DNA of 51,263 nucleotides from a phage, in the sequence record PZ452599.1; one strand, 5' to 3'. The position numbers and the translations under genes are program-made. The notes under the pieces are model-generated. The model worked only from the letters and a program-made list of their open reading frames with translations, did not search any database and was not told where the DNA came from. Position 1 is the stretch's first letter; each line of letters starts with the position of its first letter. Positions 1,640-44,582 of this stretch are shown here, piece by piece.

Positions 1640-2932
1640 ATGAGTGAAAAAACAAGGCTAGTTAAGGCCGATGGATACAACGAGATTTTCAAGGGTAGCA
1701 AGGGCAATGGGCGTGTGGAGTTGCCTTTCTTTATGCAAGGGTTCGAATACACCACGCACGCTGATTTTTACATTCGCGACGGCCTAGCAAAACGAATTAT
1801 CGACGTTGTTCCAGAAGAAATGGTGACACCTGGATTTAATATTGATGGCGTGGAAGATGAGGAGAGTTTTAGATCTTTGTGGGATGAGAAGCGACTAAAC
1901 GATAAAATCATTGATGCGCTTTGCTGGTCGCGTCTTTTTGGTGGCGCTGCAATCGTGGCAATCGTTCAGGATGGCAGGGCATTAAAGTCACCTGTAGCGC
2001 CTGGTGCAATCCTTGAAGATGTTCGCGTTTACGATCGCTTTCAGGTTCGCGTAGAAAAGCGCGAAACTAATCCACGTAAGGTGCGATATGGTGAGCCATT
2101 AATTTACACCATTTCACCTGGTGCGGACTTGCCAGAATATCAGGTTCACTATTCGCGAGTCTGTATTATCGACGGTGAGCGGCTACCAAATCAGCGACGT
2201 CAGTCAAATGATGGTTGGGGTGAGTCAATCCTGAATAAGCGATTGGTTGAGGCTATTTGTGATTACAACTACTGCGAAAACTTAGCAACTCAATTGTTGC
2301 GACGTAAGCAACAGGCAGTATGGAAAGCTAAAGGACTTGCCGATCTTTGTGATGATGATGATGGTGTTAACGCCGCACGTTTGCGCCTTGCTCAAGTTGA
2401 TGATGAGGGTGGCGTAGGTCGTGCGATCGGCATTGATGCGGAAGATGAGGAATATGATGTTTTAAATTCTGATATTTCCGGCGTCGATTCATTCCTGGAA
2501 AAGAAGATGGATCGCATTGTATCTCTTTCCGGCATCCATGAAATCATCCTCAAAAACAAGAACGTTGGCGGTGTTAGCGCGAGCCAAAACACGGCGCTTG
2601 AAACCTTCTACAAGCTGATCGATCGAAAGCGAAAGGAAGAATACAAACCAATCCTTGAATTTCTGATCCCGTTCCTGATTCAAGAGGAAGAATGGAGTAT
2701 TCAGTTTGCGCCGTTAAGCGTTCCCAGCGAAAAGGACCAGGCCGAGATCTTGAACAAGAATATTGATTCTTTGAGCAAGGCTATTGACGGTCAATTCATG
2801 GATACAGAGGAGGCGCGCGACACATTGCGAGCCATTGCGCCTAACGTTAAACTAAAGGACGGCAATAACATTAAATTACCTGAGCAGGACGTAGAGCCGG
2901 AGCCAGGAACAACCGAGGGTAGCAATCAATGA
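1640..2932 (+). CDS. portal protein
   Basis: 430 aa immediately after terL; ATG 1640 with GGAG 8 nt upstream (track ORF begins at in-frame TTG 1634). Assignment by position and size. Confidence 0.65.
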   Translation: MSEKTRLVKADGYNEIFKGSKGNGRVELPFFMQGFEYTTHADFYIRDGLAKRIIDVVPEEMVTPGFNIDGVEDEESFRSLWDEKRLNDKIIDALCWSRLFGGAAIVAIVQDGRALKSPVAPGAILEDVRVYDRFQVRVEKRETNPRKVRYGEPLIYTISPGADLPEYQVHYSRVCIIDGERLPNQRRQSNDGWGESILNKRLVEAICDYNYCENLATQLLRRKQQAVWKAKGLADLCDDDDGVNAARLRLAQVDDEGGVGRAIGIDAEDEEYDVLNSDISGVDSFLEKKMDRIVSLSGIHEIILKNKNVGGVSASQNTALETFYKLIDRKRKEEYKPILEFLIPFLIQEEEWSIQFAPLSVPSEKDQAEILNKNIDSLSKAIDGQFMDTEEARDTLRAIAPNVKLKDGNNIKLPEQDVEPEPGTTEGSNQ

Positions 2933-3684
2933 TAGTGAAAGGCGTCGTTAAACAATGGCGCTTTCCTGAAGCAAGCGAGCGGCAATTGCGCCGCTCAATT
3001 CAGGAGGCGATAAGGGATCTTGTTGTGCTGATGCGCAGCAAAACAAAGGAAATGAAATTTGACGCGGACACCGAAGAAATCAACGCCGCAGAGGATGAGA
3101 TTAGTAGCTTCGCGTTAAAGCTAATAGCTGGCATCGCCGCATCACTTCCGGTTATCGGCCTTGCTGTTTATAAATTCAACGCAAAGCAATTTATTAACGT
3201 AGCGAAATCAACGGGAGGCAAGTCAAATTCCGCCGTTATCATCCTTATGGCTATTGGGGCCAATGCGAATGAGAGTTGGTATAGGACGCTATACGGTCAA
3301 TGGCATGACATGACGATCGCATCTCTTCAAAAACTATTTGGAAACATCGTGTCTGACTGGTCAACCAATATCAGATCGGCAAACTTTCGCGGAATGAGAG
3401 ATAGTCAGGTTAATGAATTGGCTGGTAAGAGGTTCGCAGTGTATAGCTCTTGGGGTAAGACAAGGGCTGAAAATATCATAGGCGCTTGGAATAGTAGACT
3501 CATGCGCCAGCGTCTTTATGATTCAAAAGTAACTCATTATTTTTGGCATGGTATGCTTGATGACAGAGAACGATTGCAGCATGTACAATGGGAAGGTAAG
3601 CGCATTGCGCTAGATTCTGAACATGATTTTCCTGGTGAGCCTTTCGGTTGTCGTTGTTGGGCCATACCAGACTGGAACAGTTAA
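2929..3684 (+). CDS. minor head / head morphogenesis protein
   Basis: 250 aa; ATGA start-stop overlap with portal; position between portal and scaffold-like gene. Confidence 0.5.
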   Translation: MIVKGVVKQWRFPEASERQLRRSIQEAIRDLVVLMRSKTKEMKFDADTEEINAAEDEISSFALKLIAGIAASLPVIGLAVYKFNAKQFINVAKSTGGKSNSAVIILMAIGANANESWYRTLYGQWHDMTIASLQKLFGNIVSDWSTNIRSANFRGMRDSQVNELAGKRFAVYSSWGKTRAENIIGAWNSRLMRQRLYDSKVTHYFWHGMLDDRERLQHVQWEGKRIALDSEHDFPGEPFGCRCWAIPDWNS

Positions 3685-3694
3685 GAGGTGTTAA

Positions 3695-4810
3695 ATGAAG
3701 GCAAAACAAAGATTTGATAGCGCCAAAGTAAAGGCGCACTTTGATGATAACGGGTTTTTAGTTGATCGCCCTATCGTGGCGCGAATTGGTTTACAAGTCT
3801 ATCAGACTCCCTTCGGTGAGCGCAGAGAATTTCGTCCGGCGTCCGAAGTATTCAAGGCCGACTCACTCGCCACCTTCGCAGGGAAGCCAGTCACGGTTGG
3901 TCACGTTACGGTAACTCCAGAAAACGCCGAAAAGGTTGTGGTTGGTTCTTGTGCTGGCGCTGGTGTGCCGAACGGGATCGGCGTAGAGGTTCCGTTAAGC
4001 ATTTACTCAAAACGAGCAATCGAAAGCGCGAAGAAGCGAGACACGGCTGAAATTTCAGTTGGTTATACCTCGGTTGATATTGATAAACCTGGCTGGGGCA
4101 ATAATAAAACTGGTGAGTACGTTTTCGATGAGGATGTTAGCGAAGACTGGAAACCGGATTCTCCTGATTGGGTTAAGTTTGATGCAATCCAGACTGAAAT
4201 CAAGGTAAACCACATCGCGTTAGTCTTCCGAGGTCGTGCTGGTATTGCAAAATTAAACCTTGATAGTCAGCAAGATTTTCCGTATAGTGACGAAGTTATT
4301 AACAACAAAGAGGATCAAACCATGACTGTAAAAATTAAACTGGATGGCGCTGTAGAATTTGATGTTCCGAAAGCAGTTGCGGATCACATTGAATCACTGA
4401 AAGCTGATGCAAAAGCACAGAAAGAAAAGGCGGACGGCCTGGAAGCTGAGCGAGATGCACTGCAAACCAAAGTAGATGGCATTCAGGATCAGATTGATGC
4501 CGCAGTCAAGAAAGCCAAAGAAGATGCCGCGCAACATGCTCAATTAGTAGCAGACGCTAAAGAGTTAGGAATCAAGTGCGACGGCCTGGATGCGAAAGCA
4601 ATCAAGGTTGCATACATCAAAGAAGTTATGGGCAATGACGTTTCCGATAAAACTGATGCCTATATCGAAACAGCTTTCGACATCGCCAAAAACTCTGATA
4701 AAATGGCGGCGCAGCGTAAGAGCATTAAGGGTGACTCTTTCGCGAATGAAAAACATGATGAAGCAGGTTCTAAGCTGAATCCTAACGCTCGTTTTGAGAA
4801 ACTGAAATAA
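3695..4810 (+). CDS. putative prohead protease / scaffolding protein
   Basis: 371 aa; GAGGTG RBS; C-terminal coiled-coil-like A/K/E/D-rich segment; position before capsid genes. Confidence 0.45.
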   Translation: MKAKQRFDSAKVKAHFDDNGFLVDRPIVARIGLQVYQTPFGERREFRPASEVFKADSLATFAGKPVTVGHVTVTPENAEKVVVGSCAGAGVPNGIGVEVPLSIYSKRAIESAKKRDTAEISVGYTSVDIDKPGWGNNKTGEYVFDEDVSEDWKPDSPDWVKFDAIQTEIKVNHIALVFRGRAGIAKLNLDSQQDFPYSDEVINNKEDQTMTVKIKLDGAVEFDVPKAVADHIESLKADAKAQKEKADGLEAERDALQTKVDGIQDQIDAAVKKAKEDAAQHAQLVADAKELGIKCDGLDAKAIKVAYIKEVMGNDVSDKTDAYIETAFDIAKNSDKMAAQRKSIKGDSFANEKHDEAGSKLNPNARFEKLK

Positions 4811-4822
4811 GGAGTAATTAAA

Positions 4823-5332
4823 ATGGCTAAAATTGGAGCAAGTTATTTTGACACTATGGCGCGTGCGCTTCCTGGTCAGGTATCCGACACGTCAGCATAT
4901 AACATCGACGGCGCTTGCGTTCTTGACAAGGAAGACGGCATCCCAATCCTGGTTGGCGTGGCTGTTAAGCTAAAAGGCGTTGACTCAATGGGTAATAAGC
5001 TGATCGACGCTATTTCTGGTGGTGGTGATGTTCCTTATGGCGTTGGCGTTCGTTCGCACTTTCAAACTACGGCTGATAATGGTCGAATGGTTTATGAGGC
5101 TGGCGGCGGAATCAACGTTATGACTGAGGGCCGTGTCTGGATGATTGGCGATGATTCCGATAAAAGCAAAAAGCCAGAATATCGTGAGCCTGTAAAAATT
5201 GATGAAAACTCTGGCAAGGTGAAAAGTGCTGGCGCTATCAATACAAACTGGGTTTACACTGGCGATAAAACCACTTTTGGAACTGGCAATAATATGTTGA
5301 CTTTGTTTGAAGTTCAGGTCTTCCCAAGCTAA
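4823..5332 (+). CDS. capsid-accessory (decoration-like) protein, paralog A
   Basis: 169 aa; AAGGAG RBS; shares YNIDG and RGVW/EGRVW motifs with the next gene; occupies the lambda gpD-equivalent position before the major capsid gene. Confidence 0.4.
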   Translation: MAKIGASYFDTMARALPGQVSDTSAYNIDGACVLDKEDGIPILVGVAVKLKGVDSMGNKLIDAISGGGDVPYGVGVRSHFQTTADNGRMVYEAGGGINVMTEGRVWMIGDDSDKSKKPEYREPVKIDENSGKVKSAGAINTNWVYTGDKTTFGTGNNMLTLFEVQVFPS

Positions 5333-5338
5333 AATCAA

Positions 5339-5362
5339 GGCGCTCGCTTGAGCGCCTTTTTT
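5339..5362 (+). terminator. intrinsic terminator between the two capsid-accessory paralogs
   Basis: Hairpin GGCGCTC...GAGCGCC followed by TTTTTT. Confidence 0.6.
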
Positions 5363-5382
5363 ATTATGTAAGGAGAAATGAA

Positions 5383-5922
5383 ATGGCTAAAGATTATTCA
5401 TCTATTATGGGTCTTTCTTGCCCTGGTTGTTTGGTTGATTCTACTCGCTACAATATTGATGGTACTGGCGTTTGTGGTTCTGAATCGATCATTGCTGGTA
5501 AGGTTGTTTTCTTTAAGGAGAGAATCGGCGGTTACAACATATTTGTTGACCACAAAGAGGAGGACGCTGTGGTTGCGGGTGTTGCGCTAAGGAGCAACAT
5601 AACAACGACAGTTAACGAGGAAGACGGGTATTCCGACTACAAGGAAGGAGACGCCATCAACATTTTGACAAGAGGTGTTGTATGGTGTGTAACTCAAACA
5701 ATTGAATCTCCCCCTGAGCATGGGGATCTTGTTTATGTTAACAATGATGGTTTTGTAGCAAAGAGTGATGGCGATGAAATCGTCGATGGCTGGATTTTTA
5801 CTGGTGACTTCTACAAGTTTGATGAAACAATAAACATAGTCGGAGTCAGAATAACGCCGCTTTATCATAGAAAATATCTTCTCACTGGTGCGATCATTGA
5901 GGCTGAAAATGGATACATATAG
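5383..5922 (+). CDS. capsid-accessory (decoration-like) protein, paralog B
   Basis: 179 aa; ATG 5383 is 9 nt from AAGGAG; tandem paralog of 4823-5332; ends at TAG 5920-5922 with an open in-frame continuation. Confidence 0.4.
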   Translation: MAKDYSSIMGLSCPGCLVDSTRYNIDGTGVCGSESIIAGKVVFFKERIGGYNIFVDHKEEDAVVAGVALRSNITTTVNEEDGYSDYKEGDAINILTRGVVWCVTQTIESPPEHGDLVYVNNDGFVAKSDGDEIVDGWIFTGDFYKFDETINIVGVRITPLYHRKYLLTGAIIEAENGYI

Positions 5923-6165
5923 GGAACAGAGACGATTGATAACGTCCAATTAAAGGTGACAGTTGTTCCGACTTGGGCCGATGACAAAACTGGTCAGTGG
6001 ACAATTACAAATCCACAAGATCCAATGGTTGCCAGTGTTAGTCGAACAGGCCTTGTTGTTCCTACTGGTGTTGGAGGTAGAGTTAACGTCAACTGGACTG
6101 CTAATGATGGTTCTGGAGTTGCTGACCAGTTTGATATTGTATTTACGAAAACCGCTGGCGAATAA
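5923..6165 (+). CDS. in-frame Ig-like extension downstream of TAG (candidate readthrough product of 5383-5922)
   Basis: No stop between TAG 5920-5922 and TAA 6163-6165 in the same frame; translated segment (VQLKVTVVPTW...WTITNPQDPMVASVSRTGLVVPTGVGGRVNVNWT) resembles a bacterial Ig-like domain; only a weak GTG at 5956 for independent initiation. Confidence 0.35.
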   Translation, partial: GTETIDNVQLKVTVVPTWADDKTGQWTITNPQDPMVASVSRTGLVVPTGVGGRVNVNWTANDGSGVADQFDIVFTKTAGE

Positions 6166-6190
6166 CTAATAGCATAAAAAAACATTGCAC

Positions 6191-6210
6191 GTTTAACAAA
6201 AAGTGCTATC
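6191..6210. promoter_or_regulatory. reverse-oriented motif copy (GTTTAACAAAAAGTGCTATC) upstream of major capsid gene
   Basis: Located between the Ig-like ORF and terminator 6217-6241; function and direction unresolved. Confidence 0.3.
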
Positions 6211-6216
6211 ATCTAG

Positions 6217-6241
6217 GCCGTTACATTTAACGGCCTTTTTT
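6217..6241 (+). terminator. intrinsic terminator upstream of major capsid gene
   Basis: Hairpin GGCCGTT-ACATTT-AACGGCC followed by TTTTTT. Confidence 0.6.
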
Positions 6242-6255
6242 ATGGAGGAAGCAAA

Positions 6256-7227
6256 ATGGCTAAAAAATATGATGAACTAGATGCTACGATTGTGGCGAAT
6301 CATTTGCAGATTCAGGGTGTTAAGTCCGACGCTTCTGATATGGGTATTTGGACCGCTCAAGAGCTACACAAGATCCGCTCTACCGCATACGAGAAAGAGT
6401 ATCCGGCAGGTTCCGCGCTTCGCGTATTCCCTGTAACAAACGAGCTTTCTGATACTGACAAGACTTTCGAATATCAGACTTTTGATAAGGTTGGCTACGC
6501 GAAAATTATCGCCGACTACACCGATGATCTGCCGACTGTGGACGCGTTGATGACTTCTGAGTTTGGCAAAGTGTTCCGCCTGGGTAACGCTTATCTGATC
6601 TCCATTGATGAGATTAAAGCAGGTCAGCGAACTGGCAAGAGCCTGTCAACTCGCAAGGCTAACGCTGCGCAAAATGCACATGATCAGTTGATTAACTTCC
6701 TGGTGTTCAAAGGTTCCAAGCCTCACAAGATCGTTTCCGTTTTCGATCATCCTAACCTTACGAAAATTGTTTCTAAAGGCTGGATGAGCCAGGACGGCAA
6801 TACCAAGTTCCCGGAAGTGGCAAGCGATGAACTGGAGGCCGCAATCGAAACGATCGAGGAAGTAACCAAAGGTCAGCACCGCGCGACCAACATCCTGATC
6901 CCGCCGTCCATGCGTAAAGTCCTAACGGTTCGAATGGAAAATACCACTGAAAGTTATCTGGAATACTTCCAGAAGCAAAACGGCGGTATCACTATCGACT
7001 CTATCGCAGAGCTTGAGGATATTGACGGCAAAGGTACGAAAGGTTGCTTGGTTTACGAAAAAGATCCAATGAACATGAGCATTGAGATTCCAGAAGCGTT
7101 TAACATGCTTCCGGCGCAGCCAAAAGACCTGCATTTCAAAGTTCCTTGCACTTCCAAGTGTACTGGCCTTACGATTTATCGTCCGTTTACGATGGTGCTT
7201 ATTACTGGCTTGAAAAAGTCAGCTTAA
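6256..7227 (+). CDS. major capsid protein
   Basis: 323 aa; GGAGG RBS; preceded and followed by intrinsic terminators; size and position typical of siphovirus major capsid. Confidence 0.7.
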   Translation: MAKKYDELDATIVANHLQIQGVKSDASDMGIWTAQELHKIRSTAYEKEYPAGSALRVFPVTNELSDTDKTFEYQTFDKVGYAKIIADYTDDLPTVDALMTSEFGKVFRLGNAYLISIDEIKAGQRTGKSLSTRKANAAQNAHDQLINFLVFKGSKPHKIVSVFDHPNLTKIVSKGWMSQDGNTKFPEVASDELEAAIETIEEVTKGQHRATNILIPPSMRKVLTVRMENTTESYLEYFQKQNGGITIDSIAELEDIDGKGTKGCLVYEKDPMNMSIEIPEAFNMLPAQPKDLHFKVPCTSKCTGLTIYRPFTMVLITGLKKSA

Positions 7228-7238
7228 TCAGATAACAT

Positions 7239-7268
7239 GGGGAGCCTTAAGGGTTCCCCTTTTTTTTA
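7239..7268 (+). terminator. intrinsic terminator after major capsid gene
   Basis: GC-rich hairpin GGGGAGCC...GGGTTCCCC followed by T8. Confidence 0.65.
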
Positions 7269-9878: not shown

Positions 9879-9883
9879 AACAA

Positions 9884-9905
9884 GGGGCGTTGCGCCCCTT
9901 TTTTC
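9884..9905 (+). terminator. intrinsic terminator after major tail gene
   Basis: Hairpin GGGGCG-TTG-CGCCCC followed by T7. Confidence 0.7.
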
Positions 9906-9943: not shown

Positions 9944-9963
9944 CTTTTAACAAAAAGTGCTAT
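9944..9963. promoter_or_regulatory. reverse-oriented motif copy abutting RBS of tail chaperone gene
   Basis: CTTTTAACAAAAAGTGCTAT immediately followed by AAGGAGA and ATG 9978; contains TGCTATAAG resembling an extended -10. Confidence 0.3.
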
Positions 9964-9977
9964 AAGGAGATCTTGAG

Positions 9978-10295: not shown

Positions 10296-10612
10296 AGCGG
10301 GCGGTTTACCTGTTTTACCTCAAGCCGCCAACTGACGCACAATTAGAGGCCGTCGGCCTATCCCGTTCAGACTACGAAGGGGAGGAGCCGCCGGAGGTAA
10401 TTTTTGATGAATCAATGTTTCAATCTTGGGATCTGTTTTGCGCCATGCAGACGCAATGGAGATCGACTAGCGGCAGCGTGTATGGGTTCGACTATAACGT
10501 TTTGCCCATGCTTTTTGACATTTACAAGATTGATGATCGTGAGATGGCGCTAAATGATTTGCGCATCATGGAACAAAAGGCGCTAGAAATGATTCATTCA
10601 AACAAAACATAA
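9978..10612 (+). CDS. tail assembly chaperone frameshift product (gpGT-like; -1 shift at 10286-10292)
   Basis: -1 frame open from 10211 to 10612 overlapping the end of G; slippery heptamer AAAAAAC at 10286-10292; canonical position before the tape measure gene. Confidence 0.6.
10286..10292 (+). other. -1 programmed frameshift slippery heptamer A_AAA_AAC
   Basis: Heptamer sits in zero frame immediately before G stop codon 10293-10295; -1 frame is open through 10612. Confidence 0.6.
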
Positions 10613-10632
10613 GCGCCGCGAGGCGCTTTTTT
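10612..10632 (+). terminator. intrinsic terminator / attenuator between chaperone and tape measure genes
   Basis: Hairpin GCGCC-GCGA-GGCGC followed by TTTTTT. Confidence 0.5.
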
Positions 10633-13686: not shown

Positions 13687-13690
13687 TTTA

Positions 13691-13715
13691 AAGCCGCCTT
13701 TGTGCGGCTTTTTTC
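13691..13715 (+). terminator. intrinsic terminator after gpM-like gene
   Basis: Hairpin AGCCGC-CTTTGT-GCGGCT followed by TTTTTT. Confidence 0.6.
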
Positions 13716-13748: not shown

Positions 13749-14510
13749 ATGGCTAATAAAGAATCAGGTAGAGTTGAATTTGAGAACTGCCTACAAAGTT
13801 TGTACCCAGGAGAAATTATAACGCTTGTAGAGATTGACGGGACGAAGTTCGGGGCAAATATTTACCGATTTCACAATGAGAACATTTCTTATACTGCCGA
13901 AGAATTAATGCAAGCGCAGCAAACCGGAATCTTGCCGCCGAAAGATATTATTTTTCAGGGTGAGGTTTACGGAGCGCGGCCTTTCGGTGTGAGCGGGATT
14001 AACTTCACAAGTAACGGCAGGGCAGATAAGCCTCAACTTATAGTGTCAAACCTTGACAGCAGGGTTAGCGCCATGATCAGAAATTACAATGGCATGATGC
14101 AAGCAAAGGTGACTTTCTGGATTACGGCAAAGGAATTTATAGGAGAAGGCGGAGCAATCAAAGATGGCGCTTACAGAAAATTGGTTTATTACATTGAGCG
14201 CCCAAGCCAGTATAATAGAGAGGTGGCGAAATTTGATCTGACGTCGCCTTACGATATGGATGGATTGATGATCCCGCCGCGCATCACTCAAAGCGTTTGC
14301 TATTGGGCGCAAAGGGGGTGGTACAGGAGCGGAAAGGGTTGCTCTTATAACGGATCGGCAATGTTCGATAAAGACAATAAGCCAGTAACAGATCCATCAC
14401 AAGACTATTGCGCAGGAACTGTAACGGCTTGCAAATTGAGATTCGGTCAGCAAAACGAGTTGGATTTCGGCGGTTGCGCGGTGGCGTCACTGCTACGGAG
14501 GAATCAATAA
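13749..14510 (+). CDS. minor tail protein (lambda gpL-like)
   Basis: 253 aa; AAGGAGG RBS; C-terminal cysteine cluster as in gpL. Confidence 0.75.
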   Translation: MANKESGRVEFENCLQSLYPGEIITLVEIDGTKFGANIYRFHNENISYTAEELMQAQQTGILPPKDIIFQGEVYGARPFGVSGINFTSNGRADKPQLIVSNLDSRVSAMIRNYNGMMQAKVTFWITAKEFIGEGGAIKDGAYRKLVYYIERPSQYNREVAKFDLTSPYDMDGLMIPPRITQSVCYWAQRGWYRSGKGCSYNGSAMFDKDNKPVTDPSQDYCAGTVTACKLRFGQQNELDFGGCAVASLLRRNQ

Positions 14511-15896: not shown

Positions 15897-18800
15897 ATGG
15901 CTAAATATATGATAAGTGGCAGTAAAGGGGGCGGTCAAAAGCCCTACGTGCCAAAAGAGATGGAAGATAACCTGATCTCGATAAATAAGATTAAAGTTTT
16001 GCTTGCTGTATCTGATGGCGAGTGCGATCCAAATTTCACGTTGCGCGATCTTTATCTTGATGATGTTCCGGTTATTGCCAGCGATGGCACTGTTAACTAC
16101 GAGGGAGTTACGGCTGAATATCGACCAGGTACGCAGACGCAAGATTACATCCAGGGGTTTACTGACACATCAAGCGAGGTGACAGTTTCGCGAGATATTA
16201 CAGCAGACAATCCTTATGTTATATCTGTAACAAATAAAAATCTTTCTGCGATCAGAATCAAAATTCTGATGCCAGTTGGCATTAAGACAGAGGATAACGG
16301 CGATCTTGTTGGCGTAAGGGTTCAATATGCCGTAGATATGGCTGTTGATGGCGGTTCTTATAACGAGGTTATGAGAGATGTAATTGACGGCAAGACGAGA
16401 TCAGGATATGACCGCAGCAGAAGGATTGATCTTCCTAAGTTTGATGAGCGCGTTTTAATCAGAGTCAAGCGACTGACTCCAGACAGCACATCTTCAAAGG
16501 TGACTGATAAAATCAAACTGCAAAGTTACGCTGAGGTTGTGGATGCAAAATTCCGTTATCCTCTGACTGGCCTTGTATTCGTAGAATTTGACAGCGAATT
16601 GTTTCCTACGCAAATCCCTAACATTTCTATAAAAAAGAAATGGAAGATTATTAATGTGCCAAGCAACTATGATCCAATATCAAGAGAATATCACGGGTCA
16701 TGGGATGGGACTTTTAAAAAAGCGTGGTCAAATAATCCTGCTTGGGTTCTTTATGATCTGGTAACGAATCAGCGTTATGGGCTTGACCAGCGAGAGTTAG
16801 GAATACAGATCGACAAGTGGAGCTTATACGAGGCTGGCGTTTACTGTGATCAGAAAGTTCCAGACGGTAAGGGCGGTACAGAGCCTCGCTACCTATGCGA
16901 TATGGTGATCCAGAATCAGGTTGAGGCTTATCAGCTAATCCGTGACATTTGCTCAATCTTTCGCGGAATGAGCTTTTGGAATGGTGAGAGCTTATCAATC
17001 GTGATTGATAAGCCGCGCGATCCATCATACGTGTTTACTAATGAAAACGTCATCAACGGTGATTTTCAGTACACAACCGCAAGCGAAAAAAGCATGTACA
17101 CGCAGTGTAACGTGACGTTTGACGACGAACAAAACATGTATCAGCAGGACGTAGAGGGGGTTTTTGACACTGAGGCGGCATTACGATTTGGATACAATCC
17201 AACAAGCATTACAGCGATCGGGTGTACACGCAGGAGCGAAGCGAATCGTCGAGGTCGGTGGGTTTTGAAAACAAACCTTAGAAGCACTACTGTAAACTTT
17301 GCTACCGGACTAGAGGGGATGATTCCATCAATAGGTGATGTGATTGCTATCGCTGATAATTTTCAGAGCAGCAATCTAACGTTAAATCTTTCGGGACGAG
17401 TAATGGAAGTTTCAGGCTTGCAAGTTTTCGTTCCGTTTAAAGTTGATGCGCGTCCTGGTGATTTTATTATCATCAATAAGCCGGACGGCAAGCCAGTTAA
17501 GCGAACGATCTCAAAGGTGAGCGCAGACGGAAAAACCATTGAGTTAAATATTGGCTTTGGTTTTGATGTTAAGCCTGATACTGTTTTTGCGATTGACCGT
17601 ACTGACCTTGCGTTGCAGCAATACGTTGTGACAACTATCAGCAAGGGTGATGACGAAAACGAGTTTACCTATTCAATCACGGCTGTGGAGTACGATCCGA
17701 ACAAATACGACGAGATTGATTATGGCGTAAACATTGATGACAGGCCTACTTCAATTGTTCAGCCTGACGTGATGGAAGCGCCGGAGAATGTTCAGATCTC
17801 ATCTTATTCTCGCGTCGTGCAGGGTGTTAGCGTTGAAACTATGGTTGTTTCATGGGATAAGGTTCCTTACGCATCGCTTTATGAAATGCAGTGGCGAAAA
17901 GGTGATGGCAACTGGCTGAATACGCCGCAGACAGCTAACAAAGAGATAGAGGTAGAAGGAATTTACTCAGGGAACTATCAAGTAAGGGTTAGATCTGTTT
18001 CTGCAAGTGGGAACACCTCCCCGTGGTCAAAGATTGCAACCGCCACCCTGACAGGTAAAGTTGGCGAGCCAGGAGCGCCGATTAATCTTACAGCTTCTGA
18101 TAATGAAGTTTTTGGCATTCGTGTTAAATGGGGTATGCCGGAAGGATCAGGCGATACGGCTTACATTGAGCTTCACCAATCGCCAGACGGAACGGTTGAA
18201 AACTCAAGCCTGCTTACGCTGATTCCATATCCTCAATATGAGTATTGGCATAGCACGTTACCAGCGGGTCAAGTTGTATGGTATAGAATCCGTAGCGTTG
18301 ACAGGATCGGCAATGTTTCCGGCTGGACTGACTTTGTTCGCGGCATGGCGTCAGATGATGTTGAATCTGTTTTAGGCGACATTCTGGACAAGATTTTTGA
18401 TACCGAAGCGGGTCAAGAAATCAAAGAGAACGCCATAGACAGTGCCAACAAAATCAAAGACCAGGCGCAATCAATCATCCAGAACGCATTGGCAAACGAT
18501 GCTGATGTGAAATGGACGCGAGTACAAAACGGAAAGCGCAAGGCTGAATATGGTCACGCTCTTGAGCTTATCGCCAACGAAACGGAGGCGCGAGTAACTC
18601 AAATCGAAGAGTTAAAGGCTTCAATTGATGACGATATAGTTTCAAGTATCAAAACCGTTCAGGAAGCGATTGCCAACGAAGCAGAGACGCGAGCTACTCA
18701 AGTTCAGCAGCTTGATTCTAAATTTACGAAGGAAATAGACGGCGTAAAACGAGATACGGCTGCAAGTATTGGTGAGGTAAGGCAAACCATTGCTAATGAA

Positions 18801-19475: not shown

Positions 19476-19509
19476 AAAAAAAGGGGGCATAGCCCCCTTT
19501 AATTTTAAT
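19474..19509. terminator. bidirectional intrinsic terminator between convergent gpJ-like gene and leftward operon
   Basis: A9, hairpin GGGGGC-ATA-GCCCCC, then T-rich run. Confidence 0.7.
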
Positions 19510-34128: not shown

Positions 34129-34146
34129 TGCCTCCTTTATTTTTAT
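34119..34146. terminator. bidirectional terminator after spanin gene
   Basis: Hairpin GGAGGC-TTAAT-GCCTCC (includes spanin stop) followed by T-rich run; convergent with leftward gene 34143-34367. Confidence 0.55.
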
Positions 34147-34367
34147 GTGTCGGGCCACATATGAGTTTCGTTTGTTGGCTTGTTCGATTCGTCGTAATGC
34201 CTTACTTCAATGCTGCAAGTGTCGCCGTACAGTTCTGCAATCTTGCGCTCATTTTCAACAGCCGATTGCTCACTCCATCCAAAATCCCTGTCATAAATTG
34301 TCGGGATTTCAGCAGAAGATCCGTTGTCATGATTATATACGCGAACTACTAAAAACTTGCTGGACAT
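34143..34367 (-). CDS. hypothetical protein
   Basis: 74 aa; AAAGG RBS; downstream of motif promoter 34404-34448. Confidence 0.5.
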   Translation of the reverse strand: MSSKFLVVRVYNHDNGSSAEIPTIYDRDFGWSEQSAVENERKIAELYGDTCSIEVRHYDESNKPTNETHMWPDT

Positions 34368-34403
34368 AATTTTACCTTTTGGTTGTTTCGTTTCGATGAA
34401 ACA

Positions 34404-34448
34404 AATATACCCGACAATAGGTCGGGCGTTTTAACAAAAAATGCTATT
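34404..34448 (-). promoter_or_regulatory. motif-type promoter
   Basis: Motif variant (AAAAAATGCTATT) 34428-34448; spacer hairpin CCCGAC...GTCGGG; TATATT -10; upstream of gene 34143-34367. Confidence 0.45.
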
Positions 34449-34638
34449 CCATGCGCTTTACCGTAACCAGTAATACACCATCATCATTGCATAAAACATG
34501 TTCAGTGGTGCTAAAAGCGAGCATATCTGAATAAAGTAGCGTAAGTAAAGCATGAATAAAATCCTCATGTGATATTGAATTTACGGCGCAGTGCTTCAAG
34601 ATCTTGTCTATTAGCTTTTGCCTGGAACAATTCATCAT
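34444..34638 (-). CDS. hypothetical protein (start uncertain)
   Basis: 64-aa ORF whose stop lies inside a motif copy as for other genes; overlaps 34565-34960 by 74 nt in another frame. Confidence 0.3.
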   Translation of the reverse strand: MMNCSRQKLIDKILKHCAVNSISHEDFIHALLTLLYSDMLAFSTTEHVLCNDDGVLLVTVKRME

Positions 34639-39438: not shown

Positions 39439-39483
39439 AATATACCATTCAGGCGCACATAGTTTTTAACAAAAAGTGCTATT
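39439..39483 (-). promoter_or_regulatory. motif-type promoter with conserved leader
   Basis: Motif 39463-39483; TATATT -10; leader ACACCCATCGACAACAAGCGAGGA nearly identical to that at 39915-39944. Confidence 0.5.
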
Positions 39484-39769
39484 AAACAACTTTTCCAGTT
39501 AAAGAGATAAGTTGCCTTGTGATTTTGTGGCGGCGATACTGACGCTCGACAACAGGAAGGTTTTCACCGATTTGATGACCAAAACAGATCGGCAATTCAC
39601 CTTCAAGGGATCGGAAGCCACCAAATTCAAGATCCCGCACTGGCTTAGCGCGCCAGGCTTCAATAAATCCGCGCTCGTCACGAGTGATATAGCGGTATAT
39701 ATTCGGGAGGGGCAATTGTATCCCCTCAAAATCCACTGTGTCGGTGTAGCTGTAAAACTTAGAACTCAT
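39482..39769 (-). CDS. hypothetical protein
   Basis: 95 aa from ATG 39769; track start 39820 overlaps an upstream small gene; stop inside motif copy. Confidence 0.45.
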   Translation of the reverse strand: MSSKFYSYTDTVDFEGIQLPLPNIYRYITRDERGFIEAWRAKPVRDLEFGGFRSLEGELPICFGHQIGENLPVVERQYRRHKITRQLISLTGKVV

Positions 39770-39912
39770 AGTCAACAACTCCAAACTCGTTAACGATTTG
39801 CGCCTTATAGAAGCCACCATTTTTCGCCAGGTTGTAACAAGCGGCTAAGGTTTCAAATTCGCGCGCTTCCGGCTGGCTGTTTTCGTGTTCCCAGGTAATC
39901 AGAGTAACCATT
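39763..39912 (-). CDS. hypothetical small protein (49 aa, not in ORF track)
   Basis: ATG 39912 with GAGGA RBS, downstream of motif promoter 39945-39989; leader nearly identical to that of gene 39210-39407. Confidence 0.45.
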
Positions 39913-39944
39913 TTCAAATCCTCGCATTCGTTGTCGATGCGTGT

Positions 39945-39989
39945 AATGTACAGGAATACGAGGATTGAGTTTTAACAAAAAGTGCTATT
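39945..39989 (-). promoter_or_regulatory. motif-type promoter with conserved leader
   Basis: Motif 39969-39989; TACATT -10; leader ACACGCATCGACAACGAATGCGAGGA. Confidence 0.5.
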
Positions 39990-41888: not shown

Positions 41889-42353
41889 ATGAGCGAGCAA
41901 TCATTCACTGACACGCTGCGCCGTGCCGCTATTATGCTGGCTAACGGCGAGGAAGAGACGATCAAGATTCCTGACGCGTATTTGCAGGTCCACATGTTCG
42001 GCAAGAAGTCGGCAAGCAATCCGGCGGCCTACATTCGCCAGATCATGAGTCGAGTGCCAGAAGTCGCCGAGCGGGGGCGCGTATCCGTTACCCGTGGCGT
42101 TTACGGGCCGGAAGATGAAAACTTCGGTAGCACTTTCTACGAGGTGCGGATTGTTGAAGGTCGCCGCAAGGTTTACAACAAAGAGGCACTGGAAAGGGCA
42201 GTACGCCAGGCCAAGCGCAAAGTTGCAGAGGCGATCATTGATATGTCACCCAACCTGGCAAACTATGAGCCGGAAGAGTACGAAACATTATCAAAGGCCG
42301 TCGCTGACTTTCACGCGATGATCAAAAAAACTTTCCTGGAGGATGAGCAATGA
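41889..42353 (+). CDS. hypothetical early protein
   Basis: 154 aa from ATG 41889 (AGGAGG RBS); first gene after canonical promoter 41832-41860. Confidence 0.55.
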   Translation: MSEQSFTDTLRRAAIMLANGEEETIKIPDAYLQVHMFGKKSASNPAAYIRQIMSRVPEVAERGRVSVTRGVYGPEDENFGSTFYEVRIVEGRRKVYNKEALERAVRQAKRKVAEAIIDMSPNLANYEPEEYETLSKAVADFHAMIKKTFLEDEQ

Positions 42354-42613
42354 AAAAGGCATTAATCAGCGTTTTGGCGGCAATGGCATTCCTGACCGGA
42401 TGTAATGGTGATGGCGCTTACGTCGATGCGCAAATGGCTAACCCTTCCGATACTTACAACGTCAGAAAACTATTTACAGTTGATGGTTGCGATGTGTACA
42501 GGTTCAGCGATAGCCGATACGTGTACTTTACCAACTGCCAGGGTAGCGCAAACTGGTCAACTAACGAAGGTAAGTCGGTTGGTCACTACCAGAACACAAC
42601 AAACGTGAAATAG
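42350..42613 (+). CDS. lipoprotein (second; candidate superinfection exclusion or surface-modifying protein)
   Basis: 87 aa; ATGA coupling; signal peptide with lipobox FLTGC (MKKALISVLAAMAFLTGC). Confidence 0.55.
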   Translation: MKKALISVLAAMAFLTGCNGDGAYVDAQMANPSDTYNVRKLFTVDGCDVYRFSDSRYVYFTNCQGSANWSTNEGKSVGHYQNTTNVK

Positions 42614-43171: not shown

Positions 43172-44065
43172 ATGTTAAAACTTGCTGACATTAAATTCCC
43201 TATCACCTTCGAATCTCGCGGCATTGGTCATTACATTTTTACCGATGAAAAAACATGCCATAAGGTTGATATGAATAGCGACAAACTAAGCCCATCAACA
43301 ATGGAGATCCTGCACTTTATTGATGCGCACAATACGCATTACAACGCACTTAAAGACTATGGCTATGCAATGCCAGGCTACACATGTTTGCACTACAAGC
43401 CATATAAGGGCCAGGTGTTACCAGTGCGCTCACCGGAACGCGCAGAGATTCCGATGGTCAATATGAAAACCTGCGACTACAAAAAGCTGTGGTGCTTAAG
43501 TCTGGACAATATCAAGTATCCGATCACGTTCCACACGACTGGTAAGTCAACGATTCGCTACACATCGCGCGACAATGGCGTTTATAGCGATGGTACGAAA
43601 TCAGAGTTGAAAGTTGATTTCTTTGTCAACGGTCACAACAAATTCAATCCGCACAACGAAGAGGATAAAGTGTATTACGTGGAAGACATTACAAAACACT
43701 TGTTTGGAGAAACTCCATTCGGCGGCGGAAAGACGTCAATTCAAAAAATCATTGGCGAGGAGATCCACAAAGCGGCTGCCGAAATGAAAGCGCCTGGAGG
43801 CTGGCGTATTGATAAGAGCGCCTTTGCCTATCAAGAAATCGTAACGCAGGGCGCGATTGAAGATATGCCAGTTGCAGCCACGCTAAAAGGAGTCCGACTT
43901 GATGACGGCACATGGTATGAGTTAACGGCTACACCAAAGACGATCGAAATTCATGATGATGTTGTTATCCTTCTGCTTCACTACGGCGGCACTAAAAACC
44001 GGACTGTTGCAGGTGAGATCAGCATCAAGCGCGGAACGATGGTTAAGTGGAAGGTGAAGATTTGA
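43172..44065 (+). CDS. hypothetical protein with internal duplication
   Basis: 297 aa; AGGAGA RBS; two related segments (LADIKFPITFESRG... / LDNIKYPITFHTTG...). Confidence 0.55.
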   Translation: MLKLADIKFPITFESRGIGHYIFTDEKTCHKVDMNSDKLSPSTMEILHFIDAHNTHYNALKDYGYAMPGYTCLHYKPYKGQVLPVRSPERAEIPMVNMKTCDYKKLWCLSLDNIKYPITFHTTGKSTIRYTSRDNGVYSDGTKSELKVDFFVNGHNKFNPHNEEDKVYYVEDITKHLFGETPFGGGKTSIQKIIGEEIHKAAAEMKAPGGWRIDKSAFAYQEIVTQGAIEDMPVAATLKGVRLDDGTWYELTATPKTIEIHDDVVILLLHYGGTKNRTVAGEISIKRGTMVKWKVKI

Positions 44066-44141
44066 GTTTGCTCACTGCGGCGCACGTCGCCGCATGGATC
44101 GGATTGTTTGCCTACCTGTTTAGCTTTTATTGAGGTGAGAG

Positions 44142-44294
44142 ATGGCTACCTGGATTTTGCTGATTCTTATGATTGATGGCGGCGTTGACCATATCGAAAT
44201 GAATAGCCAGCAATCTTGCATTGAGGCACGAGAGCAGATCAAGAACAACAACAGGTTTTATGCGTACACTCACACGCTATGTATTAAGAAATAG
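44142..44294 (+). CDS. small membrane protein (50 aa, not in ORF track)
   Basis: ATG 44142 with GAGGTGAGAG RBS; N-terminal hydrophobic helix WILLILMI; stop TAG begins next motif copy. Confidence 0.45.
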   Translation: MATWILLILMIDGGVDHIEMNSQQSCIEAREQIKNNNRFYAYTHTLCIKK

Positions 44295-44333
44295 CACTTT
44301 TTGTTAAAACTCAAATGTGGGGCCAGGTATAAT
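44292..44333 (+). promoter_or_regulatory. motif-type promoter
   Basis: Motif 44292-44310; TATAAT 44328-44333 lies in the loop of hairpin GGGCC...GGCCC; upstream of gene 44364. Confidence 0.5.
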
Positions 44334-44363
44334 GGCCCTACTTTCAACGAAGGAGATAAAACG

Positions 44364-44582
44364 ATGTACATTAAAAAGAAGATGAAATGCGTTTCCGTTA
44401 ACTATGCTTGCTCTGGTATGTTCAAGCCTGGCGAAATCTATACAGCGCAAAAACTGAAATCATCAACCGGATCTTTTTACGTGAGCAATAGTAAGGGGCA
44501 TCGCATGTTCCTGAACGGCGGCGAAGGCACTAAGGTTATGGCACACGCTATGGTAATGGCTGAATTTGAGGAGGTGAAATAA
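44364..44582 (+). CDS. small protein of FxPGxxY family, paralog 1
   Basis: 72 aa from ATG 44364 (AAGGAG RBS); FKPGEIY...FLNGGEG and C-terminal AEFEEVK shared with next gene and HAD-protein C-terminus. Confidence 0.5.
   Translation: MYIKKKMKCVSVNYACSGMFKPGEIYTAQKLKSSTGSFYVSNSKGHRMFLNGGEGTKVMAHAMVMAEFEEVK

Follow-up and report, generated by a model that had tools for sequence, protein, structure and literature searches.

What do two similar genes lying in tandem just ahead of the major capsid protein (MCP) gene contribute to a phage head, and what does the hairpin between them do? The question is raised by positions 4823-5922 of phage sequence PZ452599.1, a stretch of 51,263 nucleotides (nt) that was analyzed whole and is here called the window. 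The best explanation overall, and in our judgment a probable one, is that the locus encodes two paralogous capsid cement proteins of a T1-like phage. The second gene is cut short by an amber codon just inside an immunoglobulin (Ig)-like domain. The elements of the locus are the following.

4823..5332, plus strand: gene 1, the major cement (decoration) protein, 169 amino acids (aa), 17.9 kDa, ortholog of T1 gp49 (PF22758, phmmer against PDB, BLASTP)
5337..5364, plus strand: predicted intrinsic terminator, a 9-bp stem (AAGGCGCTC/GAGCGCCTT) with loop GCTT, then a T-run (folding, family conservation, T1 annotation)
5370..5375, plus strand: Shine-Dalgarno (SD) sequence of gene 2, AAGGAG, 5 nt past the T-run and 7 nt before the ATG (sequence, comparison)
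5383..5922, plus strand: gene 2, the minor cement paralog shortened to 179 aa (19.6 kDa), ortholog of T1 gp48 (PF22758, PDB match)
5920..5922, plus strand: amber codon TAG at codon 180 of gene 2, GAG (Glu) in all close relatives (alignment with tonnikala, FritzSarasin, and Poky)
5923..6165, plus strand: in-frame, intact, untranslated remnant encoding a Big_2 Ig-like domain, 80 codons and a TAA (PF02368)

The paralogy of the two genes, their family membership, their orthology to T1 genes, and their synteny were established in this analysis. The two open reading frames (ORFs) lie at 4823-5332 and 5383-5922, and a single BLASTP comparison of their products gives 50 identities in 162 residues (31%, E = 2e-14); the motif pairs SAYNIDGACV/TRYNIDGTGV and VMTEGRVWMIGDD/ILTRGVVWCVTQT (gene 1/gene 2) were confirmed. 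The paralogy that the first-pass annotation of this DNA had read from shared motifs, proposing pairwise alignment as the check, is thus borne out. Both products belong to PF22758 (Phage_cement; 84.4 bits for gene 1 and 80.5 bits for gene 2, against a gathering score of 27 bits), and both also exceed the curated cut-off of PF23982 (XM1 gp53 minor capsid protein) and match PHROG 1989.

Gene 1 is 100% identical to gp59 of phage tonnikala, 46% identical to T1 ST49 (E = 1e-42, BLASTP), and similar to the 158-aa "cement protein II / decoration protein" of PDB entries 9KZJ, 9KMG, and 9KMH (phmmer, E = 2.6e-36); as in T1, it lies between the protease gene and the second cement gene. Gene 2 was searched as a 260-aa form with Glu restored at codon 180; this form matches 9kzj_H, a "BIG2 domain-containing protein" (255 aa, T1 gp48), with E = 8.9e-14 in an alignment that covers both domains (residues 9-245 against 8-236). 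Tonnikala gp60, which maps to window gene 2 at 98.8% identity with one internal stop, is 29% identical to T1 ST48 over both domains (E = 7e-16). ST49 and ST48 are themselves the solved PDB chains matched by genes 1 and 2, and the N-terminus is shorter in gene 2 than in gene 1, the same length difference as in the T1 pair. Orthologs of gene 1 are 33%-77% identical across genera and the cement domains of gene 2 (T1 gp48 among them) only 25%-35%, which argues for an old duplication with a faster-evolving minor copy. GC content at third codon positions is 0.42 in gene 1, 0.37 and 0.30 in the two parts of gene 2, and 0.52 in the MCP gene.

What the T1 counterparts do in the particle is known, and from the T1 structure the fold and virion location of both window products are taken by analogy. 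The T1 head has T = 7 symmetry and 415 copies of the MCP gp47 (PMC11945409). It is decorated by 80 gp49 homotrimers and 60 gp48:gp49₂ heterotrimers, giving 360 gp49 and 60 gp48 subunits, with the heterotrimers at defined quasi-threefold positions (PMC11945409, PDB 9KZJ). Both gp49 and the N-terminal part of gp48 are beta-tulip folds analogous to lambda gpD and TW1 gp56; the N-terminus of gp49 inserts to the inner surface of the shell, and gp48 stays on the outside only (PMC11945409). The C-terminal residues 154-255 of gp48 appear as weak, flexible protruding density, proposed to aid adsorption (PMC11945409). In phage TLS an 18.5-kDa band has been tentatively assigned to the gene 1 ortholog.

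By homology to T1, the gene 1 product would be the abundant subunit, forming homotrimers at the true and some of the quasi-threefold positions and supplying two of the three chains at the remaining 60. The gene 2 product would be the third chain of those 60 heterotrimers, and would normally bear a flexible C-terminal Big_2 Ig-like domain projecting from the shell. The T1 genes (gp49 of 158 aa and gp48 of 255 aa with BIG2) fall in the same Pfam family as the window pair and have the same order: protease, cement 1, terminator, cement 2 with Big_2, MCP. By sequence, domain content, synteny, and regulatory layout the pair is assigned to the T1 gp49/gp48 cement system, in which gp48 keeps its Big_2 domain fused, whereas window gene 2 loses it to the amber codon. 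The first-pass annotation had called these capsid accessory genes at the decoration position before the MCP gene; this agrees with the T1 orthologs, which are modelled in the capsid as cement proteins. One result weighs on the other side: an AlphaFold2 prediction for the 179-aa product from a 22-sequence alignment (mean predicted local distance difference test 45.3, predicted template modelling score 0.37) was too poor for a fold search.

Other decoration systems resemble the pair in part. Lambda gpD and TW1 gp56 are trimeric beta-tulip cement proteins at threefold positions, like T1 gp49 and the N-terminal part of gp48 (PMC11945409); lambda, unlike T1, uses one protein at all 140 sites, and the likeness to the window proteins rests on the T1 fold, not on sequence. 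The window proteins exceed the cut-offs of both PF22758 (E217 gp24 / Pam3 gp6) and PF23982 (XM1 gp53); these prototypes are myophage proteins, judged by Pfam family names and the titles of cited papers, and as far as shown each is a single cement protein rather than a major/minor pair with an Ig-bearing member. T4 Hoc and T5 pb10 are Ig-like capsid decorations. Together with phicrAss001 they offer a likeness in the accessory surface Ig-like domain, which is thought to aid weak adherence and is dispensable and evolutionarily labile; in the T4 Hoc/T5 pb10 type, however, the decoration is a separate monomeric protein, whereas in the T1 type the Ig domain is fused to a cement paralog within a heterotrimer. 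Both phicrAss001 and T5 are cited as examples of Ig-like capsid decoration in the T1 work (PMC11945409).

The hairpin between the paralogs (stem 5337-5358; 9 bp, of which 6 are G-C, and a loop of 4) is followed by TTTTATTATG, a T-run of six T's if the last two of the stem are included. Its centroid energy is -16 kcal/mol (z = -2.3 against shuffled sequences), and it is among the best terminator-like sites of the region. Folding places a hairpin and T-run after the first or only cement gene in all 12 Drexlerviridae loci examined, from several genera, with at least eight unrelated stem sequences (GGCGCTC, GGGGACTATCC, AAAGCCGTTC, GGGCGCTC, GGGACCATCC, GGTGGGGC, GGGGC, and AGCCTCC). Because the hairpin is kept while its stem sequence is not, comparison strongly supports a terminator function. 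The T1 record (NC_005833), which annotates more than 20 terminators, has a rho-independent terminator between ST49 and ST48 at 14235-14267. The hairpin is thus a predicted rho-independent terminator, on the grounds of its stem-loop, T-run, intergenic position, and conservation. The terminator that the first-pass annotation had placed between the paralogs therefore stands, with hairpin and T-run at 5337-5364; its observation of the locus was real and right in outline, and is already explained by published T1 work. The SD sequence of gene 2 adjoins the T-run, a tight spacing found also in T1, PHB07, Henu7, and Kalemo and holding for all two-gene phages, so there is no room for a promoter downstream of the hairpin. 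The T-run tail of the hairpin at 1597 is identical (TTTTATTATG) to that at 5337.

If transcription stops here, how is gene 2 expressed? The following promoter-like sites and hairpins bear on the answer.

4677..4704, plus strand: candidate promoter for gene 1, TCGACA, 16-nt spacer, TG-extended TAAAAT, in the 3' end of the protease/scaffold gene, 118 nt upstream of gene 1
5307-5335: weak promoter-like site adjoining the hairpin in this genus, TTGAAG, 17-nt spacer, TAAAAT, 9/12 matches, without TG
6185..6212, plus strand: promoter-like site for the MCP gene, TTGCAC, 16-nt spacer, TG-extended TATCAT, conserved in relatives
6215..6242, plus strand: second terminator-like hairpin (stem 6215-6236) and T-run, 2 nt after the -10 of the MCP promoter (folding)
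7239..7268, plus strand: putative terminator after the MCP gene (folding; the T1 equivalent is annotated at 16107-16137)

The promoter assignments are predictions from sequence. A site equivalent to that of gene 1 (at least 9/12 matches, 16-nt spacer, TG) was found in each of the 10 phages examined; in eight it lies 115-123 nt upstream, and in the two Webervirus phages 172 nt. It overlaps a conserved peptide, FDxAKxSDKM, and the Ser codon that provides its TG is TCT in 8/8 despite divergence elsewhere. A sigma-70-like MCP site with a 16-nt spacer and TG-extended -10 is present in all seven two-gene phages scanned and in the single-cement phage KOX1; across T1, LeonhardEuler, Kalemo, PHB07, Henu7, and KOX1 the -35 varies among TTGACG, TTGAAC, TTGCAC, and TTGACC and the -10 follows TGcTAT(C/T/A)(A/T/C)T, and by eye phage 12210I has a similar site (TTGCGT and TGTATAAT). 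Transcripts from the MCP promoter would escape termination at 6215, since most of the 5' arm of that hairpin would be missing from them; those arriving from upstream would meet the full hairpin. The promoter-like -10s at 5307-5335, 6185-6212, and 7210-7238 all end 1-3 nt before successive terminator hairpins, which suggests composite terminator/promoter modules in which new transcripts start within the 5' arm. No site of at least 8/12 was found before gene 2 in T1, LeonhardEuler, Kalemo, or Henu7. A dedicated gene 2 promoter at 5307-5335 was set aside, the site not being conserved outside the genus and PHB07, and is kept as a subsidiary alternative.

A conserved intrinsic terminator would uncouple the transcription of gene 1 from that of gene 2. 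Gene 1 would form a unit from its promoter-like site to the terminator, the MCP gene would have its own conserved promoter, and gene 2 would lie between them without a conserved promoter; its mRNA would then come mainly from terminator read-through, and the minor subunit would therefore be made at a lower dose. In the single-cement relatives (Klebsiella phages 1513 and KOX1, E. coli phage 12210I) the order is cement, terminator, promoter, MCP, and the second paralog occupies exactly the slot between terminator and MCP promoter. Lower expression of the second copy, as the first-pass annotation had suggested, is plausible by analogy, fitting both the 360:60 copies in T1 and the absence of a conserved gene 2 promoter. 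Read-through as the means of setting the dose is a matter on which we see the balance as roughly even. In T1 the late region is described, according to the summary in PMC11447400, as "transcriptons" with flanking rho-independent terminators and sigma-70-like promoters (Roberts et al. 2004); re-analysis of TLS could not confirm most of the promoters (PMC11447400). The punctuation of late genes is thus alike in T1; a promoter-less gene 2 slot dosed by read-through is the present proposal.

Several points weigh against it. Conservation of the gene 1 site may partly be a by-product of coding for the conserved peptide; the weak site at 5307-5335 could feed gene 2 directly; a literature search found no Drexlerviridae transcriptome data; a phage antitermination mechanism may operate; and site-specific binding, not dosage, may determine how many copies of gp48 the T1 head carries. 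Some of these points converge on an alternative to which we give somewhat less than an even chance, namely that the hairpin is a real terminator that does not set the ratio. It would be one of about nine late-region intergenic terminators with general roles (insulation between modules, for example, protection of 3' ends, or a block to early or antisense transcription), and the 6:1 ratio would be set by which threefold sites are able to accept gp48 (surplus being unused) or by a weak gene 2 promoter. Strong hairpins with T-runs do follow the genes for the large terminase TerL (1597-1618), the MCP (7239-7259), and the major tail protein (9882-9900); others lie before the tape measure gene (10611-10628), at 6215-6236, and near 13690 and 19480 (13690-13711 and 19480-19500), and the more than 20 terminators of T1 tell the same way. 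Read-through must be routine if each terminator is followed directly by the next gene's SD sequence, the weak site adjoins the hairpin at 5307-5335, and the T1 heterotrimers occupy defined positions (PMC11945409). Against this alternative, gene 1 and gene 2 have the same strong AAGGAG ribosome-binding site, so that any difference in dosage would need to originate with the RNA; no head gene other than gene 2 lies between a terminator and the conserved promoter that comes next; and T1, LeonhardEuler, Kalemo, and Henu7 do not share the weak promoter. In the three head-region gaps examined (5337, 6215, and 7239) the SD sequence of the next gene lies within a few bases of the T-run, so that expression of the late genes downstream would require read-through or else promoters that overlap the hairpins.

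Where, then, is the Ig-like domain of gene 2? A single G to T change at 5920 turns GAG (Glu180) into TAG. The translation of 5923-6165 matches PF02368 (Big_2) with 30.7 bits against a gathering score of 22.8, and because the match begins at model position 19, the first Ig strand lies upstream of the stop; by the Pfam profile offset, codon 180 falls about 11 residues inside the Big_2 domain. The shortened gene 2 keeps a complete cement domain, the linker, and the first Ig strand, and is left with no foldable Ig domain. The first-pass annotation had credited gene 2 with an "Ig-like extension"; this does not hold for the ORF it named, since the Ig domain lies past TAG 5920-5922, in the same frame and outside that ORF, and the end at 5922 is a nonsense mutation that went unrecognized.

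Gene 2 is annotated as one 783-nt ORF of 260 aa in tonnikala, FritzSarasin, and Poky; it and the Ig part also form a contiguous 260-aa ORF in two IMG/VR contigs, and in the relatives checked an unbroken ORF of 255-337 codons has the Ig domain as its C-terminal part. A single polypeptide of cement and Big_2 domains is encoded in tonnikala, FritzSarasin, Poky, T1, PHB07, and Kalemo; the window allele departs from this only because of the nonsense codon. No internal stop was found in gene 2 of any of the 10 aligned homologs, and a 28-mer spanning the T at 5920 occurs in none of the 50,697 phage records of the GenBank phage collection. Of the tonnikala coding sequences (CDSs), 78 map to the window, and gene 2 alone among them is interrupted by a stop. 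The nonsense codon and its uniqueness are thus direct observations. An exact-pattern scan of IMG/VR for the TAG allele gave zero matches, as did the GAG control, so that it had no power and only the GenBank phage collection is informative for this search.

In a non-suppressing host, amber codon 180 would end gene 2 just inside the Ig domain; if the truncated protein assembles, the particle would still receive the cement domain and would lack its 60 Ig projections. No polar effect is expected, as the MCP gene appears to have its own promoter. An error of sequencing or assembly, the phage truly having an intact 260-codon gene, is improbable though still to be reckoned with. The TAG at 5920 is a single-base difference resting on one assembled sequence, an exact look-up of the truncated protein in a collection of 15 billion proteins finds nothing, and the Ig-coding part is undecayed (gene 2 differs from that of tonnikala by two substitutions and the stop). 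The intact 243 nt downstream indicate that the change is recent, or possibly an error. The other tonnikala CDSs that map to the window, however, are free of internal stops and frame breaks; what changed is one base by substitution, not a homopolymer by an indel; hundreds of genuine single-nucleotide polymorphisms separate this isolate from tonnikala; and an independent related phage has nonsense codons in the same domain, a parallel that makes the window codon more likely to be genuine.

A second alternative, which we consider distinctly unlikely, is that the amber codon is partly read through, in a supE or supF host or by natural low-level suppression, giving 19.6-kDa and 28-kDa forms and a host-dependent Ig display. 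Common E. coli K-12 laboratory hosts carry supE44, the Henu7 record lists E. coli DH5 as host, and the remnant that encodes the Ig part is undamaged and remains in frame. A suppressor tRNA is absent from the phage, however (no tRNA genes were found in the window); TAG ends seven ordinary genes, including that for TerL; and the relatives encode Glu at codon 180, so that no recoding site is conserved there. On the same three grounds, programmed read-through or recoding of TAG was rejected.

That the 179-aa gene 2 and an Ig-like ORF (GTG 5956-6165, 69 aa) are two separate functional genes is very improbable. An ORF from GTG 5956 does appear in a mechanical ORF list, but it has no spaced SD sequence (AAAGG abuts the GTG directly), it shares the frame of gene 2, with which it forms an unbroken ORF in all relatives, and a free 69-aa partial Ig domain would be without a capsid anchor; it was rejected as a gene on the first two of these counts. 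The 69-aa ORF, like the exact truncated protein, is absent from the 15-billion-protein collection.

Truncation of this kind has a parallel, and the number of Ig modules varies naturally. By lineage the minor paralog has no Big_2 domain, one (most phages), or two (Kalemo, 337 aa). The loci and the interrupted gene used in these comparisons are as follows.

Henu7 (locus L008), 3019-3480: minor cement paralog, compared for Big_2 number
Kalemo (locus L009), 3040-4053: minor cement paralog, compared for Big_2 number
Locus L018, 2501-3010: minor cement paralog, compared for Big_2 number
Locus L016 (logan:SRR29834454_9513), 3065-3067 and 3116-3118: two in-frame TAG codons, compared with locus L041 (ena:ERZ26858496 NODE_11474)

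Two Ig-less versions of gene 2, that of Henu7 (153 aa) and that of the large metagenomic cluster P0011 (365 member sequences, 169 aa), are followed directly by the MCP promoter region; the existence of such natural versions indicates that the cement domain alone is a viable form. Webervirus phages 1513 and KOX1 and the Veterinaerplatzvirus phage 12210I (loci L011, L012, and L014) have one cement gene only. In a metagenomic phage with 79% identity (L016), TAG codons interrupt the Big_2 part of gene 2 at codon 189 (CAG to TAG) and codon 206 (TGG to TAG), and these two nonsense changes are its only differences over 3,375 aligned bases from the intact contig of the neighbouring run (L041). The gene 2 product of this phage, P0005 (188 aa; run SRR29834454, 50-kb contig), matches the intact 258-aa P0006 of the adjacent run SRR29834453 without a difference along its whole length. 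The knockout looks recent. Neutral change would rarely turn two of two differences into nonsense mutations, both in one 240-nt domain, so selection for loss of the Ig domain, or an engineered or artefactual source, is suggested. Among about 33 two-cement loci surveyed, gene 2 is stop-interrupted only in the window and in the L016 contig; in IMM-001 it is frameshifted, and that record is poorly assembled. That loss of the capsid Ig-like domain by amber mutation is recurrent and positively selected in these phages is a tentative proposal, which we think rather doubtful. A literature search on escape from defence through capsid Ig domains returned nothing relevant, the top match being on host mutations.

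The window as a whole provides the setting. By megablast the region falls in the genus Warwickvirus (family Drexlerviridae, subfamily Tempevirinae), and the ORF map shows a head module of siphophage type. Except for the MCP gene, the following rows rest on the ORF map, Pfam, and PHROG.

1-1569: large terminase (TerL)
1634-2932: portal
2929-3684: Mu-F-like head morphogenesis protein
3695-4810: prohead protease/scaffold
6256-7227, plus strand: MCP, HK97 fold family, ortholog of T1 gp47 (PF09950, 182 bits; PHROG 264, major head protein)

Tonnikala is about 98% identical to the window as a whole, 99.4% identical over 4700-6300 (megablast), and about 92%-99% identical genome-wide in collinear blocks, which makes the window a distinct isolate. 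The window lacks the HNH endonuclease gene of tonnikala (gp13) and two small genes, and differs at about 34140-34600 and at 39480-39970 relative to gp13, gp23, and gp24. Early genes are partly mosaic (29% identity to gp29 and 63% to gp30; also 41892-42583 and 43172-44579). These differences in gene content are ordinary modular variation.

The MCP site at 6185-6212 is built on an inverted copy of an 18-21 nt direct repeat of the family. The window has 14 copies of this repeat, TTTAACAAAAAGTGCTAT, against none expected; reverse-complemented, TTTAACAAAAAGTGCTAT gives the direct repeat ATAGCACnnnTTGnTAAAA of TLS.

6192-6212 and 9946-9966, plus strand: late-region copies, inverted relative to late transcription
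27623, 30112, 31183, 42607, 43070, 44288, 45812, and 48608, minus strand: early-region copies, pointing with their genes
37266, 39465, 39971, and 41275, plus strand: early-region copies, pointing with their genes

All 12 early copies have a -10-like cATAAT 20 nt downstream, many with an inverted repeat in the spacer, and most of them lie about 60-80 nt ahead of a start codon; they resemble early or middle phage promoters furnished with a conserved element upstream. Judged by the 12 early copies, the minus-strand -10 candidates for an antisense promoter from the copy at 6192-6212 either are without the invariant final T or stand in the wrong position.

The T1-type cement pair, its structure, and the terminator between the genes in the T1 record are known already; new here are the annotation for the genus, the comparative argument for terminator-based dosing of the minor subunit, and a natural Ig-less amber allele with a parallel. 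Warwickvirus records label the cement genes HtjA, "hypothetical protein," "scaffolding protein," or "zonula occludens toxin," and protease and cement orthologs of relatives are mislabelled in GenBank as "zonula occludens toxin," "scaffolding protein," "beta-galactosidase," or "HtjA." The chief value of the analysis is a correct annotation: these Warwickvirus genes encode the major and the minor cement protein of the capsid, as the T1 structure defines them. Their layout suggests a simple way to set a 6:1 ratio, in which a promoter, an abundant gene, a terminator, a promoter-less minor gene, and the next promoter follow one another.

If amber loss of the Ig domain is indeed recurrent and selected, 60 Ig projections would be costly under some conditions: they might adhere to debris, slow diffusion within plaques, or be recognized by a host factor or defence. 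A nonsense mutation would then act as an off-switch, and the lineages with zero, one, and two Big_2 domains would record a longer-term turnover. With the amber allele and a second relative truncated independently, a natural knockout would be at hand for studying the function of capsid Ig-like domains in T1-like phages.

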